From contig CAZXFX010000005.1 of assembly GCA_964640295.1 (NCBI GenBank), positions 21,497 to 85,496 of the forward strand: 64,000 bases of DNA, given 5' to 3'. The translations under genes were made by a program, and so were the position numbers. The stretch's first letter is position 1; every line of letters begins with the position of its first letter. The DNA is from an uncultured Dehalococcoidia bacterium. GTDB taxonomy: Bacteria; Chloroflexota; Dehalococcoidia; Lucifugimonadales; UBA1123. Below the pieces are notes generated by a model. That model was not told the origin of the DNA, searched no databases, and saw only the letters and a program-made list of their open reading frames with translations. Shown here piece by piece: positions 3,036 through 64,000 of the stretch.

Positions 3036-3080
3036 CTGTGGCAGGCGGTCAGCATTGATTCGCCTGCCACAGCTTTCTTT
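3036..3080 (+). terminator. Rho-independent terminator after the NHL gene
   Basis: Perfect 12-bp stem ctgtggcaggcg (3036-3047) / cgcctgccacag (3061-3072) with a 13-nt loop, followed by ctttctttg. Confidence 0.75.
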
Positions 3081-3118
3081 GAGAATGCCAATATCCGGTT
3101 GAACCCAGGAGATTCAAA

Positions 3119-4207
3119 ATGTTCGAGAGTCTGCGGATACGAAACTACCGCGCTTTCAGCGACCTCGAAATAAGCGATCTGGCGCGGATAAACCTGATTG
3201 GCGGCAAGAACAACTCTGGCAAGACGAGCTTGCTGGAGGCGATATTTCTGCTTGCCAGCGGTGGAAACGCGAATGCGCTGATGAATGTGAACGTGATTCG
3301 TGAACTTGTCGCTGAGCCTGCGTCCACTCGGCAAGCGGCGGACGTACTTTGGAAGCCGATTTTTCACAATATGGATATGGGCGTTCCCATAAAAATCGAA
3401 GGACGCCATTCTGAACGCGGTTCGCTTTCTCTAAAGATTTCTGCGGAGCGAGCGTTGACCGCCTCGTTTCCCATTGAAAAATCGGCCATCAAGGGGCAGG
3501 ATGTGGCTTCTATGGATGATGTGGCCAGCGAGCGCGCTCTCAAAGTTCTATATTCCAACAACGGAGAAACGCGAGGTGGGGGGCATATAGTCCTGAAGGG
3601 ACGTGAGTACGAAGTAAAGCAAGACGATCTTGACGTTCCCTTGGCCCTGACTATTCTCAAGCCGAGAAGCGGATATCTGGAAGATGACGCTATACGATTG
3701 GGGAGATTGCGACAGCAGAAGCGTGGCGACCTTCTTCTGAACGCGCTTCGCATAATAGAGCCACGCTTGCAAAGTGTCGAGGATAATTCTGCGAGCGGCG
3801 CGCCTATGATATGGGGAGACGTTGGCCTGTCCGAGTTAGTTCCCCTGGCGGTCATGGGAGAGGGCATGACTAAACTGACGCGCCTAATTCTCGCCATAGC
3901 CAATTCGCCCGGAGGAGCGACGCTTGTGGATGAAGTGGAAAACGGGATTCACCACTCGGTCATGTCCAAAGTGTGGAAGGCGATAGCCGCCGCCGCCAAG
4001 CGGTTCGATACCCAGATATTCGCCACTACGCACAGCTATGAGTGTATTGAGAAGGCGCATGAGGGGCTTGGATCAGAGGGGTTCCTATTCCACAGGGTGA
4101 CGACTAGGAGCGTAGCCGATCATACGCCAATTACACCGGTCCGGTTCACTACTTATACACCTGATATGATCGAAACGGCTATGCGTCATTATATGGAGAT
4201 TCGTTAA
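3119..4207 (+). CDS. ABC/SMC-type AAA ATPase (AAA_15/AAA_21-like, OLD-family ATPase module)
   Basis: Walker A GGKNNSGKTS near the N-terminus, signature-like MGEGMTKLTRL, Walker B ATLVDEVENGIH and H-loop FATTHS. AGGAG RBS 7 nt upstream. Confidence 0.85.
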   Translation: MFESLRIRNYRAFSDLEISDLARINLIGGKNNSGKTSLLEAIFLLASGGNANALMNVNVIRELVAEPASTRQAADVLWKPIFHNMDMGVPIKIEGRHSERGSLSLKISAERALTASFPIEKSAIKGQDVASMDDVASERALKVLYSNNGETRGGGHIVLKGREYEVKQDDLDVPLALTILKPRSGYLEDDAIRLGRLRQQKRGDLLLNALRIIEPRLQSVEDNSASGAPMIWGDVGLSELVPLAVMGEGMTKLTRLILAIANSPGGATLVDEVENGIHHSVMSKVWKAIAAAAKRFDTQIFATTHSYECIEKAHEGLGSEGFLFHRVTTRSVADHTPITPVRFTTYTPDMIETAMRHYMEIR

Positions 4208-4209
4208 GA

Positions 4210-4821
4210 ATGCCTGTCCCCGCTCCAATCGTGTCAAATGTGCAGTTGCTAGTAGAAGGGAATGACCAGAGGAACTTCTTTGGAGCTCTTGCAAGGCACA
4301 TATCAATCGAAAGCATACAAATTCAGAATTTTGGAGGCGTAGATGAACTTAGAGGCTTTCTGGAAACACTGGCGGCCTCTGACGAGTTCAAGGATGGGGT
4401 ACAGAGCCTTGGCATTGTTCGAGACGCGGAAGAATCCGCTCGCTCGGCGTTCCAGAGCGTTCAGTCTTCGCTCAGAAATGCAGGATTGTTCGTTCCAGGG
4501 CGCCCCAGAGAGCGGGCGGGCGACTCGCCTGCGGTGAATGTACTGATATTGCCGGACGATGACAGGCAGGGAATGTTGGAAACACTATTGTGTGAAACTT
4601 TAGCGAACACCCCGATAAACGACTGCATTGACGACTTTCTCGATTGCGCCCGCGCGCTGCCGAACGCAGATATTCAACGACCGGATAAGTCGCGCGCCCA
4701 TGCCTATATCGCAACTCGGCCTGAACCGCAGTTCTCGGTCGGTTACGCGGCAATGAGGGATTACTGGGACCTTGACCATGACGCCCTGAGGAACGCCAGA
4801 CGCTTTCTTCTATCTCTGTGA
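4210..4821 (+). CDS. Toprim-like (DUF4435/DUF3226/DUF4276-like) small protein, partner of the ATPase
   Basis: Starts 2 nt after the ATPase stop. N-terminal LLVEGNDQRNFF (the VEG..D motif typical of OLD/AriB/RloB-type Toprim), then IVRDAEE and ILPDDDRQG acidic clusters. Domain call is from motif recall only. Confidence 0.6.
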   Translation: MPVPAPIVSNVQLLVEGNDQRNFFGALARHISIESIQIQNFGGVDELRGFLETLAASDEFKDGVQSLGIVRDAEESARSAFQSVQSSLRNAGLFVPGRPRERAGDSPAVNVLILPDDDRQGMLETLLCETLANTPINDCIDDFLDCARALPNADIQRPDKSRAHAYIATRPEPQFSVGYAAMRDYWDLDHDALRNARRFLLSL

Positions 4822-4833
4822 AAGAACGGGGAG

Positions 4834-6099
4834 ATGTTTACCATGACTTTGACCGACGCGCGATGTCCAGCGCTGTCCAAGATACGCATTTGCGACTTCA
4901 CAGGCCAACTCGCGGGGGCGGGCGCAACGAAGATGTTGGCCATGTTCGGAGCGCAGGTCATTCGAGTCGAGGACAGACTTAGACAGGGGCAGTGGGACAT
5001 CTTCCGCGGCAATGGTCCCTGGCCTGATGAGCGCAGAGGCATAAACTTGGGAGGAACTTTCAACAACCACAACGTCGAGAAGATGGGCGTCACTCTGGAT
5101 ATGCGAAAGCCTGAAGCGAGCGATATTCTGCGCGAACTCATCTCGGTGAGCGACGTCGTGACCGAAAACTTCAGCAAGGGCGTGCTGGACAGATGGGGCT
5201 TCTCTTACAACGAAATGGTCAAGATAAAGCCAGACATCATATACGTCTCCAATAGCGGGTTCGGTCATTCGGGCCCTTACTCCGAATACAAGACCTGGGG
5301 GCCAATCGTGCAGGCCGTCTCCGGGCTGACGTTCCAGTCGGGGCTGGCCGGAATGCCTCCCGCCGGCTGGGGTTATTCTTACATGGATCACACCGGCGGC
5401 TACCAAATGGCGATAGCCATTCTGATGGCGGTTTATCACCGCTATCGCACAGGCGTCGGTCAGTGGGTGGATATGTCCTGCTCGGACGGCGCGGCGGCGC
5501 TCAACGGCCCAGCCATTCTCGACTATACAGTGAACGGCGTTCCCGCGCGCCGGCCAGGCAACCCGGACAGCAACCGAAGCGCCTATCCCAAAATGGCGCC
5601 GCACGGCATATACAGGTGCGCGGGCGACGACCAGTGGGCGGCTGTCGCCGTCAGAGACCGCGACGACTGGACAGCGATGCGCGAGGTCATGGGCTTTTCC
5701 GACCTTGCCGCAGACGCATCTCTCGATTCGGTTGAGGGCCGGATGAAGCGACACGACGAACTCGATGAGAGAATCACGGCGTGGACAGCCTCTCGAACGC
5801 CAATGGAAGTGATGAAGTCGCTCCAGAACAGGGGCGTTCCCGCAGCAGCCGTTCAGCGTCCAGAAGACCGAATCGAGCATGACCCGAACACCGCCGCATG
5901 GGGGCTTTTCCCGACCGTCGAACACAAGGCGATAGGCAGGATCCGAGTGGACGGCACGGCGGTCAAAATGTCGGAGACGCCGGCGGTCATCGAAAGGGGC
6001 GCGCCGACTCTTGGACAGCACAACGAAGAGGTGTTCGGCGACATACTGGGAATGCATCCCGATAGCGTTCGCGCTCTGTCAGAATCGGGGGTGATCTGA
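4834..6099 (+). CDS. Class III CoA-transferase (CaiB/BaiF family)
   Basis: 421 aa. N-terminal IRICDFTGQLAGAGATKMLAMFGAQVIRVE and overall length are typical of the family. Confidence 0.9.
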   Translation: MFTMTLTDARCPALSKIRICDFTGQLAGAGATKMLAMFGAQVIRVEDRLRQGQWDIFRGNGPWPDERRGINLGGTFNNHNVEKMGVTLDMRKPEASDILRELISVSDVVTENFSKGVLDRWGFSYNEMVKIKPDIIYVSNSGFGHSGPYSEYKTWGPIVQAVSGLTFQSGLAGMPPAGWGYSYMDHTGGYQMAIAILMAVYHRYRTGVGQWVDMSCSDGAAALNGPAILDYTVNGVPARRPGNPDSNRSAYPKMAPHGIYRCAGDDQWAAVAVRDRDDWTAMREVMGFSDLAADASLDSVEGRMKRHDELDERITAWTASRTPMEVMKSLQNRGVPAAAVQRPEDRIEHDPNTAAWGLFPTVEHKAIGRIRVDGTAVKMSETPAVIERGAPTLGQHNEEVFGDILGMHPDSVRALSESGVI

Positions 6100-10439: not shown

Positions 10440-11380
10440 CAGGACAGCCTCACTCTGGGATTGAGAGCGCCGTAAGCAAGGTCGGCGGCAAGATTGCTGA
10501 AGGCGTAAACCGCGGCGATGATCATGGCGGTGGTCTGCAAGAGCCTTATGTCTCGCGCGTTGATCGCGGATATGAGCAGGCCGCCCATACCCGGATAGGC
10601 GAACAGGTTCTCGATGATTATGAGTCCGCCGAATAGCCAGCCCACGTTGTTGGCAATGACGGTAATAGTCGGCAGCAGCGCGTTTGGAAGGACGTGTCGC
10701 ACAACGACCGTTCGCATCGGCAAGCCCTTCAGTATTGCCGTGCGGACATAGTTGCTTCCCATTACGTCTATGACGTTGGCGCGCGCCATCCTGAATATGT
10801 ATGCGAACAGCGCGCCCGTGACTGTCAATATGGGCATTATGAGCACTTGCGGATTGCCGAGTATGGTCTCGCCGGGCATCATTATGCTGGACGAGGGCAG
10901 CCATCCGAGCGTGGTCGAGAGTACCAATACCAGCACCGCGCCGGTGACGAATTCTGGCAGGGAGATGGTCAACAGCCCTCCAAGCGTGAAGATTCGGTCC
11001 AGCGGCGTGTTTGAATTGGCGCCCACTATGACGCCCATTACAAGTCCCAGCGGAACAGCTATGAGAAATGCGCCGACGGCTAACAGAGCCGAATTGAACA
11101 GGCGTCCTCCGACGATGCCAGAGATAGGGGCCCCGTTCGCGGTTATGCCCAAGTCGCCTCGCGCCACGCCGCCAATCCATTCCAGATATCGGACGTGTGG
11201 CGGTTTGTCCAGTCCCAGTCGTTCGCGCAGCGCCTTGAGATTGTCCGGGGTGGCGCCTTGCCCCAGTATGATGGCGGCGGCGTCGCCCGGCACGAATTCG
11301 ACCAATGAGAATATGGCAATCGAGACCGCGAGCAGGGTCACTACTATGAGGGATAATCTGACTATGAGGAATCTTGCCAT
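10439..11380 (-). CDS. ABC peptide-type permease (DppB/OppB-like)
   Basis: 313 aa, multi-TM, beginning MARFLIVRLSLIVVTLLAVSIAIF, with a BPD-transport style core. Confidence 0.9.
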   Translation of the reverse strand: MARFLIVRLSLIVVTLLAVSIAIFSLVEFVPGDAAAIILGQGATPDNLKALRERLGLDKPPHVRYLEWIGGVARGDLGITANGAPISGIVGGRLFNSALLAVGAFLIAVPLGLVMGVIVGANSNTPLDRIFTLGGLLTISLPEFVTGAVLVLVLSTTLGWLPSSSIMMPGETILGNPQVLIMPILTVTGALFAYIFRMARANVIDVMGSNYVRTAILKGLPMRTVVVRHVLPNALLPTITVIANNVGWLFGGLIIIENLFAYPGMGGLLISAINARDIRLLQTTAMIIAAVYAFSNLAADLAYGALNPRVRLS

Positions 11381-11434
11381 ATTGTCTTAAGCGCTTTCGT
11401 CTCCAACGCCGAGTTTAGTCTGTCTGATACCGGA

Positions 11435-61316: not shown

Positions 61317-61562
61317 ATGGTCAGCGTCACCATAAACGATCTGGACGAATCCTTAGAACAACGCCTTCGCATGAGGGCGGCGCAGAAAGGCGTCTCCGTC
61401 GAGCAAGAAGCGAGGAACATCCTGGCCGCCGCCCTGCGCGACCAACCCCCGCCCCATGCAGACCTCGCAAGCTCTATCCGCTCCAAATTCGCCCCCTTCG
61501 GCGGCGTCGAACTGGAGTTGCCCGCTCGAGACGCTATTCGTCCCACGCCTCACTTTGACTGA
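61317..61562 (+). CDS. vapB: RHH-type antitoxin (VapB/FitA-like)
   Basis: MVSVTINDLDESLEQRLRMRAAQKGVSVEQEARNILAAAL is a ribbon-helix-helix N-terminus. Immediately upstream of a PIN gene. Confidence 0.8.
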   Translation: MVSVTINDLDESLEQRLRMRAAQKGVSVEQEARNILAAALRDQPPPHADLASSIRSKFAPFGGVELELPARDAIRPTPHFD

Positions 61563-61572
61563 GACGCAAGAT

Positions 61573-62013
61573 ATGATAATACTTGACACGAACGTCGTCT
61601 CCGAACTGATGCTTCCCATTTCTGATCAGAACGTGGTTGAATGGGTTATCAGCCAAGACCCCATGACTCTCTATCTTTCAGTCATAACTGAGGCTGAATT
61701 GCGTTATGGCATTGAGATAATGCCTCCAGGACAACGACGCGAGGGACTCCACGCTGCAATGGAAGCCATGTTTCAAGAAGACTTTGCTGGACGCATTTTG
61801 CCTTTCGATAGGGCGTCCGCTCACTCCTATGCTGCGATTGCCGCGTCTCGACGATCATCAGGGCGTCCTATCAGCCACTCAGATTGTCAAATAGCCGCGA
61901 TTGCGAGTACGCACGACGCCTCAGTCGCTACCAGAGACGTAGCAGGCTTTGAAGGCTGCGAAGTCAATATCATCAACCCATGGACTGACGCAATGAAATT
62001 TCCCGAAACATAA
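61573..62013 (+). CDS. vapC: PIN-domain toxin (VapC/FitB-like)
   Basis: MIILDTNVVSEL..., SVITEAEL, and DCQIAAIA...ATRD acidic residues. The ORF-track start 61456 overlaps vapB. Confidence 0.88.
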   Translation: MIILDTNVVSELMLPISDQNVVEWVISQDPMTLYLSVITEAELRYGIEIMPPGQRREGLHAAMEAMFQEDFAGRILPFDRASAHSYAAIAASRRSSGRPISHSDCQIAAIASTHDASVATRDVAGFEGCEVNIINPWTDAMKFPET

Positions 62014-62029
62014 GTTCGCTTCACGGCAA

Positions 62030-62099
62030 TCCGAAACTCCCAAGTCGAAGCCGTCTGGCCCATACTGGCAAGAGGCTGCCACCACTGACTACGATAGCC
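62030..62099. repeat. Direct repeat copy 2 (uninterrupted 70-nt version)
   Basis: tccgaaactcccaagtcgaagccgtctggcccatactggcaagaggctgccaccactgactacgatagcc. Matches 61056-61116 plus 61254-61262. Confidence 0.9.
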
Positions 62100-62252
62100 T
62101 CGACCGCAGTGTGGGTATATTGACTGCTACTACCCGCAAATGATACAAACTCACGCAGGACTAGCGTATTCCGAAATATATGTGTAGCCAAAGCGGAACT
62201 CGTGTTGGCGAATGCAGTCTCTTTACGGTGGGCGTATTCAGGAGGATGATTC

Positions 62253-64000
62253 ATGGTATCCCAAGGTTCAGACAATATATACAGGACCATAATAGTCGGC
62301 GCGGGAAGCTCAGCCGCCAACTTCATTCCAGAGTTCTGTCGCTCTGAGTCCGAAAACGTCCGAGTCACATTCATAGACCACGATTTGGATCAAATAGATG
62401 ACCTCCGCAGGCAATTGTCAAGTGTCCTCGATGAGGACTCCCTTAATACAGTACATGTCAATAAGCCTGAAACTGCCAGGGCCAATTTCAGGTCCAAGGT
62501 TCAGGAACTTGGATTCTCATACGAAAGGATAAACTGGGATAGAGAGGTCGCCCCGGATACACCTCCTGTCATACGGATTTTGACCCACATACAGTGGGAT
62601 GAGATTAAGAGAGCTATTGACGATCATATCCAGAAAAATCTGGATGACACCCCTACTGCCGAAAATAGAATAGTCTACGTCTTTGGCGTAACAGGCATGA
62701 CCTCCAGCACCGTAGCCATGGAAGCTTCGAAATTGTACAGAAAGCGCCTGAAAGACTGGGCCAGAGAGCGCGCCTCCACCAGTAGCCAGGAAATCAGACA
62801 AATCGGACTTGCGCTTATGTCTCCCACTCCGACTCTTGGGATTAGCGCGTATAATATCGAGCAAGGCTACAAAATTTGCACGATGCTCTCTGAAACAGTC
62901 CCGGACGAATACGCAAGTCTAAAGCAAAGAGAAGCCTTCCCTTTCGACAATTTGTTCCTCATAGATGGAAGCGGATTCGGTGGTGAAGACCGGCAGGATC
63001 AGCGAGAATTCAGTAAATGGTCTGCCGAAACTCTTTCCATGTTGTTATATCCCAAAGGACAGGACAGACATGGAAGTATAGATACCAACGAAATATTGGG
63101 CGAGCTGAGAGGCTACCGTAGTATAGCTCTTGGTCGGGCAGGCTGGAACCCAGAAGAGATAATTGAGGTTCAAGACCAGGTAGTTCTTAACTCATTGGTT
63201 GAAATCGGTCTTGATTCAGGCCTTGCATCAGAAGATGTAAAAAGAGTTCTGAGACAGCTTAAGAGCGGCGATGAAGATGTTCGAAAACAACTAGAAGGAA
63301 TGATTGTTGCCCTTGATGATGAAGAGGACGCTAAAGGGGAGCTCGAAAAGTTCAATTCACGATGGTACCGTAGAGTGGGTGGGGGAAGGCTGGAGCGGGA
63401 GAATAGACTCAAAGAGGCTGTAGCTAATGCGGATAGCGTATTTGAAGGTTTGGAGAATATGGTGGAGGCTCGCGCTGATAAACTAGACAAGAAATTTAGA
63501 GGTCGCAGACTCAAGTTCCTGTGGAGTACCCCATCGCTCAGAGAGACCATTAGATTGGTGGAAAATAGAGGGCCTGGGAGTGTATTGACTAACTTTGAAT
63601 CTCTGGAGTCATCTGATCAGCAGCGTTTCAGAACGGATCGCGACAGTATGCTTATGCGTATGATAGATCCATCTACTGAACATGATACAAGAACGAAAAG
63701 CATTAAATCATGGGAAATGGGACCGTCTGATGGCAGACAGATGCTTGGATTCCCCACAGAAGATTTGCAGTATGAAATGATGGACAATAGAGATGACCCA
63801 GTAGAAGTAGCCGAATATGAACTGAGCGGGGATATGCTCTATTCATTGATGTTCTGGATTCCTGCGGATGGAAAGATTATGCCCAGATACTACCGTAACC
63901 AATCCAATCCTGAACGCAATCGCTTGCCTGAAGATAAAGACGCTTGGCCCGAATCTGTAGATTCAACCAGCGATGACGTAGATAAGATGCTGAGGCATGG
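62253..64000 (+). CDS. Large hypothetical protein, 3'-truncated by the window (at least 582 aa); possible degenerate tubulin/FtsZ-like N-domain
   Basis: Hand-translated codon by codon with no stop from ATG 62253 (AGGAGG RBS 7 nt upstream) to the window end. Absent from the ORF track, presumably because it has no stop. AT-rich. Motifs TIIVGAGSSAANF (aa 12-24), VTFIDHDLD, VYVFGVTGMTSSTV (aa 141-154) and FLIDGSGFGG (aa 235-244). Confidence 0.75.
   Translation, partial: MVSQGSDNIYRTIIVGAGSSAANFIPEFCRSESENVRVTFIDHDLDQIDDLRRQLSSVLDEDSLNTVHVNKPETARANFRSKVQELGFSYERINWDREVAPDTPPVIRILTHIQWDEIKRAIDDHIQKNLDDTPTAENRIVYVFGVTGMTSSTVAMEASKLYRKRLKDWARERASTSSQEIRQIGLALMSPTPTLGISAYNIEQGYKICTMLSETVPDEYASLKQREAFPFDNLFLIDGSGFGGEDRQDQREFSKWSAETLSMLLYPKGQDRHGSIDTNEILGELRGYRSIALGRAGWNPEEIIEVQDQVVLNSLVEIGLDSGLASEDVKRVLRQLKSGDEDVRKQLEGMIVALDDEEDAKGELEKFNSRWYRRVGGGRLERENRLKEAVANADSVFEGLENMVEARADKLDKKFRGRRLKFLWSTPSLRETIRLVENRGPGSVLTNFESLESSDQQRFRTDRDSMLMRMIDPSTEHDTRTKSIKSWEMGPSDGRQMLGFPTEDLQYEMMDNRDDPVEVAEYELSGDMLYSLMFWIPADGKIMPRYYRNQSNPERNRLPEDKDAWPESVDSTSDDVDKMLRH

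Follow-up and report, generated by a model that had tools for sequence, protein, structure and literature searches.

The window analyzed here, a 64,000-nucleotide (nt) stretch of DNA from an uncultured Dehalococcoidia bacterium (assembly GCA_964640295.1, contig CAZXFX010000005.1, positions 21,497–85,496), contains two adjacent genes that probably constitute a split OLD-type defense or conflict module, in which an ABC ATPase would act as a sensor through a variable insert and a two-metal Toprim/helical nuclease would cut DNA or RNA. The two open reading frames (ORFs), denoted as ORF A and ORF B, are as follows:

3119–4207, plus strand: ORF A, 362 amino acids (aa), ABC/SMC-type ATPase (AbiLi-like, PDC-M38A)
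4210–4821, plus strand: ORF B, 203 aa, DUF3226 protein (PDC-M38B)

The stop codon of ORF A (TAA, 4205–4207) is separated from the ATG of ORF B at 4210 by the dinucleotide "ga", and the same 2-nt gap is present in loci L004–L007. An earlier reading of this sequence (the original prediction) had described a 362-aa ATPase, a 203-aa partner, the 2-nt gap, and several motifs in both proteins, and all of these are in place.

ORF B matches the Pfam family DUF3226 (PF11536) with an E-value of 8.6e-27 and 94.7 bits, against a gathering cut-off of 27 bits, and its residues 12–202 align with positions 3–205 of the 208-position profile. The PADLOC model PDC-M38B (PDLC04624) matches residues 8–191 at positions 11–205 of 220 (E = 9.4e-11), and nothing beyond these two models was found in Pfam, NCBIfam, or PADLOC. 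Single-sequence and profile searches against the PDB sequences returned no match. The AlphaFold2 (AF2) model, calculated from a 44-sequence alignment, has a pLDDT of 95.2 and a pTM of 0.90. Its topology begins with beta-alpha repeats and continues into a helical C-terminal half, with a Toprim core (about residues 10–122) preceding a helical domain (about 123–203). The top five PDB matches identified with Foldseek are the C-terminal regions of the Class 2 OLD nucleases from Xanthomonas and Burkholderia (6njx, 6njw, 6njv, and 6nk8), with probabilities of 0.99–1.00 and E-values of 2.4e-4 to 4.1e-3, and the matches extend from end to end in both proteins. As judged from the predicted model, ORF B corresponds to the complete catalytic C-terminal region of the OLD nucleases, and the Toprim-like nature originally proposed for the 203-aa protein agrees with these best matches to the OLD Toprim and helical regions.

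The family alignment (A1) reveals a set of invariant residues in ORF B, comprising E16, G17, D19, R71-D72-A73-E74, E124, C139, C146, K160, W186, and H190, of which E16, D19, D72, E74, and E124 are acidic. In the model, the ends of strands 1 and 3 carry E16 and D72, respectively. These residues appear to copy the order and spacing of the two-metal site of the Burkholderia OLD nuclease (Bp OLD), for which the catalytic set was taken from Schiltz et al. 2019 (PMC6755086):

Toprim Glu: Bp OLD E400; ORF B E16
Second acidic residue: Bp OLD E404; ORF B D19
DxD motif: Bp OLD D455-x-D457; ORF B D72-A-E74
Start of the helical domain: Bp OLD T506/E508; ORF B E124/T125
Helical-domain Lys: Bp OLD K562; ORF B K160
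Glu to first Asp: Bp OLD 55 residues; ORF B 56 residues
Asp to helical Glu: Bp OLD 53 residues; ORF B 52 residues
Length of the catalytic region: Bp OLD 205 aa; ORF B 203 aa

A distant plasmid homolog (22–25% identical) carries the canonical D-A-D at the position aligned with D72-A-E74. The ORF B motifs quoted in the original prediction lie at residues 13–24 (LLVEGNDQRNFF), 69–75 (IVRDAEE), and 113–121 (ILPDDDRQG). That prediction had singled out E16 and D116–D118 as key acidic residues; E16 is invariant in the family alignment, whereas D116–D118 fall in a variable, nonconserved stretch and are the wrong targets for mutation.

ORF A is matched in Pfam by AAA_21 (E = 1.2e-18), AAA_15 (5.4e-18), and SMC_N (1.5e-10). 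Two PADLOC models cover the protein, namely AbiLi (PDLC02336, E = 2.1e-55), which matches over the full length, and PDC-M38A (PDLC04611, E = 1.2e-54), which aligns residues 1–362 with positions 1–383 of 383, while the AriA, GajA, HEC, and MADS3 models score far below them. The Walker A motif (GGKNNSGKTS, residues 28–37), the Walker B motif (LVDEVENGIH, 269–278), and the H-loop (FATTHS, 301–306) are all present. Among 80 orthologs, the invariant residues are G29 and G34-K35-T36 of Walker A, the signature-like M246-G-E-G249, D271-E272 of Walker B, and H305 of the H-loop, and the region of about residues 60–190 is poorly conserved. In the AF2 model (pLDDT 82.6), this region is predicted to form a beta-rich insert in an ABC head, with no coiled coil or long insert helices. 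The closest PDB neighbors found by Foldseek are PtuA, GajA, an SMC head, Ts OLD, and Rad50 (E = 4e-11 to 4e-10), together with the retron Eco8 ATPase, all with similar scores (TM 0.43–0.51). The kinship with PARIS and AbiL, and with OLD and GajA, that had been suggested for a separate ABC ATPase with a small Toprim-like partner is borne out by the DUF3226 assignment, the OLD fold matches, and the metal-site residues. As for the profile families named at that time, AAA_15 and AAA_21 match ORF A and DUF3226 matches ORF B, but DUF4435 and RloB find nothing on ORF B; among the PADLOC models, those of the candidate defense system PDC-M38 match both proteins.

The two genes are consistently adjacent and co-evolve. 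In a census of 80 genomes, 88 sources were searched for an ATPase gene upstream of the DUF3226 gene, and an ORF A ortholog was found directly upstream of ORF B in 86 of them. Of the two exceptions, one is L003, a contig of 1 kb starting only 52 nt before the DUF3226 gene. The other (L061) is a syntenic Dehalococcoidia metagenome-assembled genome (MAG) in which an IS66-like transposase sequence (motif IEPTNNRAERALR) occupies the place of the ATPase gene (L061:8700–10020). This genome retains an apparently intact orphan DUF3226 gene, suggesting that the nuclease alone is tolerated. The pairwise identities of A and B correlate with r = 0.78, partly through shared ancestry. ORF B is more conserved than ORF A in 89% of the comparisons, with the variation of ORF A concentrated in the insert. 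The same asymmetry of conservation between sensor and effector was reported in the PARIS paper, in which the sensor surfaces are poorly conserved. An exhaustive search yielded 4,328 DUF3226 clusters at 50% identity (E up to 0.001); among the best 150 of these, nearly all representatives are standalone proteins of about 200 aa, and none is long enough for a fusion with an ATPase. The longest of these 150 representatives, P0122 (443 aa), comprises two tandem DUF3226 copies in one polypeptide. This arrangement suggests that the DUF3226 nuclease may act as a dimer.

By its sequence matches, the pair belongs to an already cataloged candidate anti-phage family, PDC-M38 with DUF3226. Both window proteins match the family models and lie adjacent on the same strand, and their gene order and sizes are those of the RefSeq plasmid members; this match consists of model hits and adjacency rather than of the system rules and thresholds that PADLOC itself applies. 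PDC-M38 belongs to a set of 145 phage defense candidates, which were derived from cassettes inside BREX, DISARM, or type I restriction–modification (R-M) systems (Payne et al., bioRxiv 10.1101/2024.01.29.577857). The window copy differs in that it comes from a divergent MAG subfamily with many sponge symbionts and does not lie inside an R-M, BREX, or DISARM system. Literature searches for "PDC-M38" and "DUF3226" retrieved no paper text, and PDC-M38 was found only in the supplementary table of Payne et al. The survey of AAA_15/21 systems in the PARIS paper gives Toprim_Old, DUF4435, RloB, and DUF4276 as partners and does not list DUF3226. The distinct, uncharacterized variant suspected in the original prediction is therefore uncharacterized but already named.

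The characterized relatives share the architecture of the pair to different extents. The OLD proteins (P2 Old; the Class 2 Bp and Xcc enzymes, 6NK8/6NJV; Ts OLD, 6P74) have the same ABC ATPase and Toprim/helical catalytic region, and the model of the window ATPase matches Ts OLD and GajA. In OLD classes 1–3, however, the ATPase and Toprim parts are fused, whereas in the window a stop codon divides them into two ORFs. In addition, OLD carries a DxD motif where ORF B has DxE, ORF B has no Pfam Toprim_Old match, the window ATPase lacks the dimerization/coiled-coil insert, and the pair has no UvrD or GajB helicase partner. PARIS shares the two-gene layout of an ABC ATPase and a separate Toprim nuclease, and the acidic set of AriB (E26, D30, D88-x-E90, and E122; PMC11464382) shows the same E..D / DxE / E pattern as ORF B. 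In contrast, ORF B has no AriB or DUF4435 match at E up to 1 (PADLOC and Pfam), and both window proteins differ in size from their counterparts (203 aa for ORF B versus about 35 kDa for AriB; 362 aa for ORF A versus about 55 kDa for AriA). AriA contains a coiled-coil bundle, whereas ORF A lacks one and its insert is beta-rich, and the AriA models match ORF A weakly (1.1e-23 and 7.8e-19) compared with about 1e-55 for AbiLi and PDC-M38A. Moreover, PARIS is often carried on phages and satellites, whereas the DUF3226 family has no phage matches. Lactococcus AbiL likewise combines an ATPase with a Toprim-like protein in two genes, and ORF A matches AbiLi over its full length, but ORF B has no AbiLii or RloB match at E up to 1; AbiLii also superimposes on the OLD structure 6NJV. 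The GajA models of Gabija reach only the ATPase motifs of ORF A (about 1e-13), and no helicase gene is adjacent. The RecF model TIGR00611 reaches 44.3 bits, where the cut-off is 172, and covers only residues 3–50 of ORF A, and ORF B has no NCBIfam match that would correspond to RecR. These comparisons separate the pair from PARIS, the second component of AbiL, Gabija, and RecFR, and place it with PDC-M38 and DUF3226, that is, in a cataloged but uncharacterized kind.

The pair is compositionally foreign in its genome. Its G+C content is 53.1%, compared with 57.5% for the window and 58–60% for the flanking genes, and it falls within the lowest 4.5% of windows of the same size. The contrast recognized in the original prediction is real but smaller than the 47% versus 60% given there. 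The G+C content at third codon positions (GC3) is 0.56–0.58 in the two genes and 0.70–0.76 in four flanking genes, and the pair lies below its flanks in 77 of 81 loci, with a mean difference of 6.3 points. Two further elements precede ORF A:

3036–3080, plus strand: terminator-like hairpin with a 12-bp stem, a 13-nt loop, and a T-rich tail
3081–3118, plus strand: short leader in which a Shine-Dalgarno-like AGGAG precedes the ATPase gene's ATG by 7 nt

The stem is perfect, with CTGTGGCAGGCG at 3036–3047 pairing with CGCCTGCCACAG at 3061–3072, followed by CTTTCTTT. The terminator scanner missed this hairpin because its 13-nt loop exceeds the 8-nt loop limit of the program. The same hairpin is located 3' of the NHL gene in the syntenic loci L043, L014, L028, L046, and L053, with a compensatory T>C/A>G change in L043. 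Since it recurs behind orthologous NHL genes and shows this compensatory change, the hairpin, already called a terminator in the original prediction, is interpreted as that of the upstream DUF1800–DUF1501–NHL operon, and it shields the ATPase–DUF3226 pair from upstream transcription. A motif scan of 3081–3118 detected no sigma-70-like promoter between the hairpin and the ATPase ATG, and the Rfam scan for RNA elements near the pair gave only a chance miRNA match (E = 0.29). On the downstream side, ORF B ends with TGA at 4819–4821, and the ATG of a CoA_transf_3 gene at 4834 follows after 12 nt, the distance given in the original prediction; an independent gene call starts this gene at the next ATG (4843), which widens the gap to 21 nt.

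Across bacteria the pair is patchily distributed, and it is kept at a fixed site once acquired. The closest relatives, with 50–67% identity, are all MAGs and span at least 10 phyla. They belong to Latescibacterota, Binatia, Dehalococcoidia, Caldilineaceae, Poribacteria, Entotheonella, Nitrospirales, Gemmatimonadota, Vicinamibacterales, Alpha- and Gammaproteobacteria, Nitrospinota, and Pedosphaera. The sponge-symbiont MAGs APA_bin_87_Rob21 (A. aerophoba) as well as IRC_PAM_SB0661_bin_34_Rob21 (I. ramosa) share a naming scheme with relatives of the window copy, and APA_bin_41 and SB0664_bin_31 are taken as sponge-derived on this basis; the taxonomy and record style of the remaining close relatives suggest a sponge origin for them as well. 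Seven Dehalococcoidia species-level MAGs share the slot DUF1800–DUF1501–NHL–[pair]–CoAT1–CoAT2, in which CoAT1 and CoAT2 are CoA transferases. Their flanking proteins are 70–91% identical to those of the window, whereas A is 42–51% identical (74% in L043) and B 53–67%, so that within this clade the divergence of the pair runs at about twice the pace of its flanks. The pair is absent from 34 of 34 NHL-anchored metagenome loci of more distant relatives (NHL 37–82% identical); these loci contain neither a clean NHL-to-CoA-transferase junction nor adjacent orthologous CoA-transferase genes. The original prediction had regarded universal conservation in a syntenic core context as an argument against a defense role; the pair is patchy across bacteria, but syntenic and vertically inherited in this one Dehalococcoidia clade, and the argument applies to it only in part.

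The neighbor-joining (NJ) tree of the ATPases groups the syntenic copies together, with two Caldilineaceae sequences nested among them, and largely follows taxonomy. Cross-phylum placements are seen for Poribacteria within Latescibacterota and for Nitrospirales within Binatia. Because the syntenic Dehalococcoidia ATPases are no closer to that of the window than those of other phyla (42–51%), repeated independent insertion at a hotspot was considered, but it was rejected on the grouping in the NJ tree. This grouping and the taxonomy-like shape of the tree are better explained by one old acquisition followed by fast divergence. Two syntenic loci contain an additional ORF in the slot, one of 477 aa between the NHL and ATPase genes (L025:7526–8956) and one of 132 aa between the DUF3226 and CoA-transferase genes (L028:10913–11308), indicating that the site accepts further insertions.

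Members of the family are also carried on small plasmids. Matches were found in 123 plasmid records of 3.8–4.2 kb; Klebsiella accounts for 121 of them, and Salmonella and Raoultella for one each. Two of these plasmids, L122 (NZ_CP024435.1, 4167 bp, Klebsiella) and L123 (NZ_AP026957.1, 3793 bp), were examined. L122 is typed as ColRNAI (ColE1-type), and both encode Rop. Beyond replication and mobilization genes, their only cargo is an ATP-binding protein of 371 aa and a DUF3226 protein of 210–212 aa, which match AbiLi/PDC-M38A and PDC-M38B, respectively. The window proteins are 22–28% identical to the enterobacterial plasmid members, with homology detected at E = 7e-40 for A and at an hhalign probability of 98.4% for B. 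A tblastn search for DUF3226 in 50,697 phage records and a Foldseek search for ORF B in BFVD gave nothing significant.

The genomic neighbors of the pair are diverse, with 59 Pfam families in 79 downstream genes and 99 in 78 upstream genes. The defense-like minority includes six Type III methyltransferases and six PDC-M03B proteins among the 79 downstream neighbors, type I R-M genes among several of the upstream neighbors, and Mrr and ResIII. A methyltransferase adjoins the pair in 11 of 88 sources, several of which are duplicate records, mostly from Binatia. A Type III-like methyltransferase (about 860 aa) is encoded directly after the pair in Binatia, Desulfurellaceae, and one Caldilineaceae lineage, and the Binatia and Desulfurellaceae loci continue with genes for a CAP12-PCTIR TIR protein and for a ResIII helicase (about 945 aa). 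Such methyltransferase-type loci (L005:8634–16595 and L006:8648–14909, as well as L004, L021, L029, L037, and L085) look like composite defense islands; in L004, an nSTAND3/AAA protein and an S8 peptidase take the place of TIR and ResIII. A standard ATPase–DUF3226–Type III methyltransferase–TIR–ResIII operon, suggested by three loci, proved to be a sampling accident in the 80-genome census, in which this continuation holds for a minority, mostly Binatia. In L008, a HIRAN-domain protein (10676–11419, minus strand; PDC-M03B, E = 2.4e-77) lies convergent and directly downstream of the pair, and this arrangement recurs in five further loci of alignment A2, of which at least four are from Latescibacterota. 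Elsewhere in the window, a PIN-domain protein of 185 aa (PF01850, E = 2.9e-12; 61456–62013, plus strand) is encoded in the stretch of lowest G+C content (about 47%, about 61500–64000). Three minus-strand ORFs of 115–126 aa without a Pfam match adjoin it, and the region may be a VapC-like toxin–antitoxin locus or another acquired islet.

In the mechanism that we propose, the two genes would form one translationally coupled, horizontally acquired module, corresponding to an OLD-family nuclease split into two polypeptides. ORF A, most likely as an ATP-sandwich dimer or a higher oligomer, would serve as the sensor and regulator, and ORF B, acting as a two-metal Toprim nuclease and supplying a helical domain of its own, would serve as the effector. 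On the model of PARIS, OLD, and Gabija, the ATPase may hold or gate the nuclease until a cue related to infection or foreign DNA acts on its fast-evolving insert (about residues 60–190). The freed nuclease would then cut DNA, as OLD and GajA do, or tRNA, as AriB does, thereby stopping the invader or the infected cell. The present data establish the domain identities, the adjacency and co-evolution of the two genes, their foreign composition, and their spread over phyla and plasmids; the nuclease activity and its substrate, the complex between A and B, the trigger, and the anti-phage role are inferred.

Several observations weigh against this interpretation. The members of PDC-M38/DUF3226 are known only as candidates, and the authors of the PDC systems explicitly describe them as such; in addition, the ABC ATPase and TOPRIM candidate HEC-01 conferred no protection in the sole reported screen, although the fused HEC-04 was protective in the same study (bioRxiv 10.1101/2024.01.29.577857). 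At the sequence level, ORF B matches none of the Toprim_Old, DUF4435, and RloB models. The TM-scores of its OLD matches are modest (0.41–0.48, Foldseek), and the residue equivalence between the two proteins is one of order, spacing, and secondary-structure position, not of three-dimensional superposition. Most neighbors of the pair in other genomes are unrelated to defense, and those in the window are metabolic (DUF1501, NHL, CoA transferases, and an ABC transporter). Furthermore, within lineages the pair keeps its synteny and is mostly inherited vertically, making it steadier than typical defense genes.

The carriage of the pair as cargo of small, mostly non-mobilizable ColE1-type plasmids (123 records) and its foreign composition would also suit a selfish addiction module of the toxin–antitoxin type, in which a Toprim toxin is restrained by the ATPase and loss of the module kills the cell without any benefit against phages. 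Pfam describes AAA_21 as a "putative AbiEii toxin, Type IV TA system", and PARIS itself behaves as a toxin–antitoxin pair. PARIS also shows, however, that addiction is compatible with defense. The persistence of DUF3226 without the ATPase in L061 indicates that the nuclease alone is not obviously lethal, and the fast-evolving insert suggests recognition of a changing external ligand; we therefore regard pure addiction as unlikely. A role of the pair in repairing and recombining the cell's own DNA, whether as a housekeeping or a lineage-specific function analogous to RecF–RecR or Rad50–Mre11, appears very unlikely. RecF and RecR are similar in size to the 362- and 203-aa proteins, the best NCBIfam and PDB sequence matches of the ATPase N-terminus are RecF and Rad50, and the stable slot in the Dehalococcoidia clade, the largely taxonomic tree, and the mostly non-defense neighbors would all fit such a role. 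Nevertheless, the RecF match is confined to the N-terminal segment at 44 bits, far under its cut-off, and ORF B lacks a RecR match yet appears to have a complete nuclease-type metal site and lysine. A GC3 far under that of the host genes, the absence from all of the NHL-anchored loci of distant relatives, the carriage on small plasmids, and the divergence at about twice the rate of the flanking genes also argue against it.

The neighborhoods described above allow one more explanation, namely that the pair is an R-M accessory, like RloA/RloB, that needs an R-M or TIR/ResIII partner, and that the window copy is a stranded remnant. The Type III methyltransferase directly after the pair in Binatia, Desulfurellaceae, and one Caldilineaceae lineage, the TIR and ResIII genes that follow it in the first two, the occasional type I R-M genes upstream, and the definition of PDC-M38 from R-M, BREX, and DISARM cassettes are consistent with this explanation. 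It is scarcely probable, however, given that the methyltransferase accompanies so few of the sources and of the downstream neighbors, that the pair stands alone in most loci and on the small plasmids, and that the window copy is intact, with none of the invariant residues missing.

The split OLD-type module thus remains the probable reading of the pair, and a more specific idea can be put forward tentatively. DUF3226 pairs might represent a distinct minimal split OLD class, in which the ATPase head has a beta-rich sensor insert and no coiled coil, the nuclease is a free counterpart of the OLD C-terminal region, and the trigger and substrate are unlike those of PARIS, OLD, and Gabija. One subfamily might have spread among sponge-associated bacteria of at least 10 phyla and afterwards have remained for a long time at fixed chromosomal sites. 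If so, it would be an immune or anti-foreign-DNA module tied to a habitat and unusually stable, in contrast to a defense gene with fast turnover. The current view of defense systems is unchanged unless experiments show a new trigger or substrate. The pairing of an ABC ATPase with a Toprim nuclease (OLD, Gabija, PARIS, AbiL, and retron Eco8) is a major theme of bacterial immunity, and the DUF3226/PDC-M38 clusters make up a large branch of it. For this branch, the present analysis offers a concrete catalytic hypothesis (E16, D19, D72/E74, E124, and K160), and the 4-kb Klebsiella and Salmonella plasmids provide a ready experimental model. The subfamily found in the window appears to be common to many sponge-symbiont lineages and is unusually stable in position, and it bears on how host-associated, hard-to-culture bacteria handle foreign DNA.

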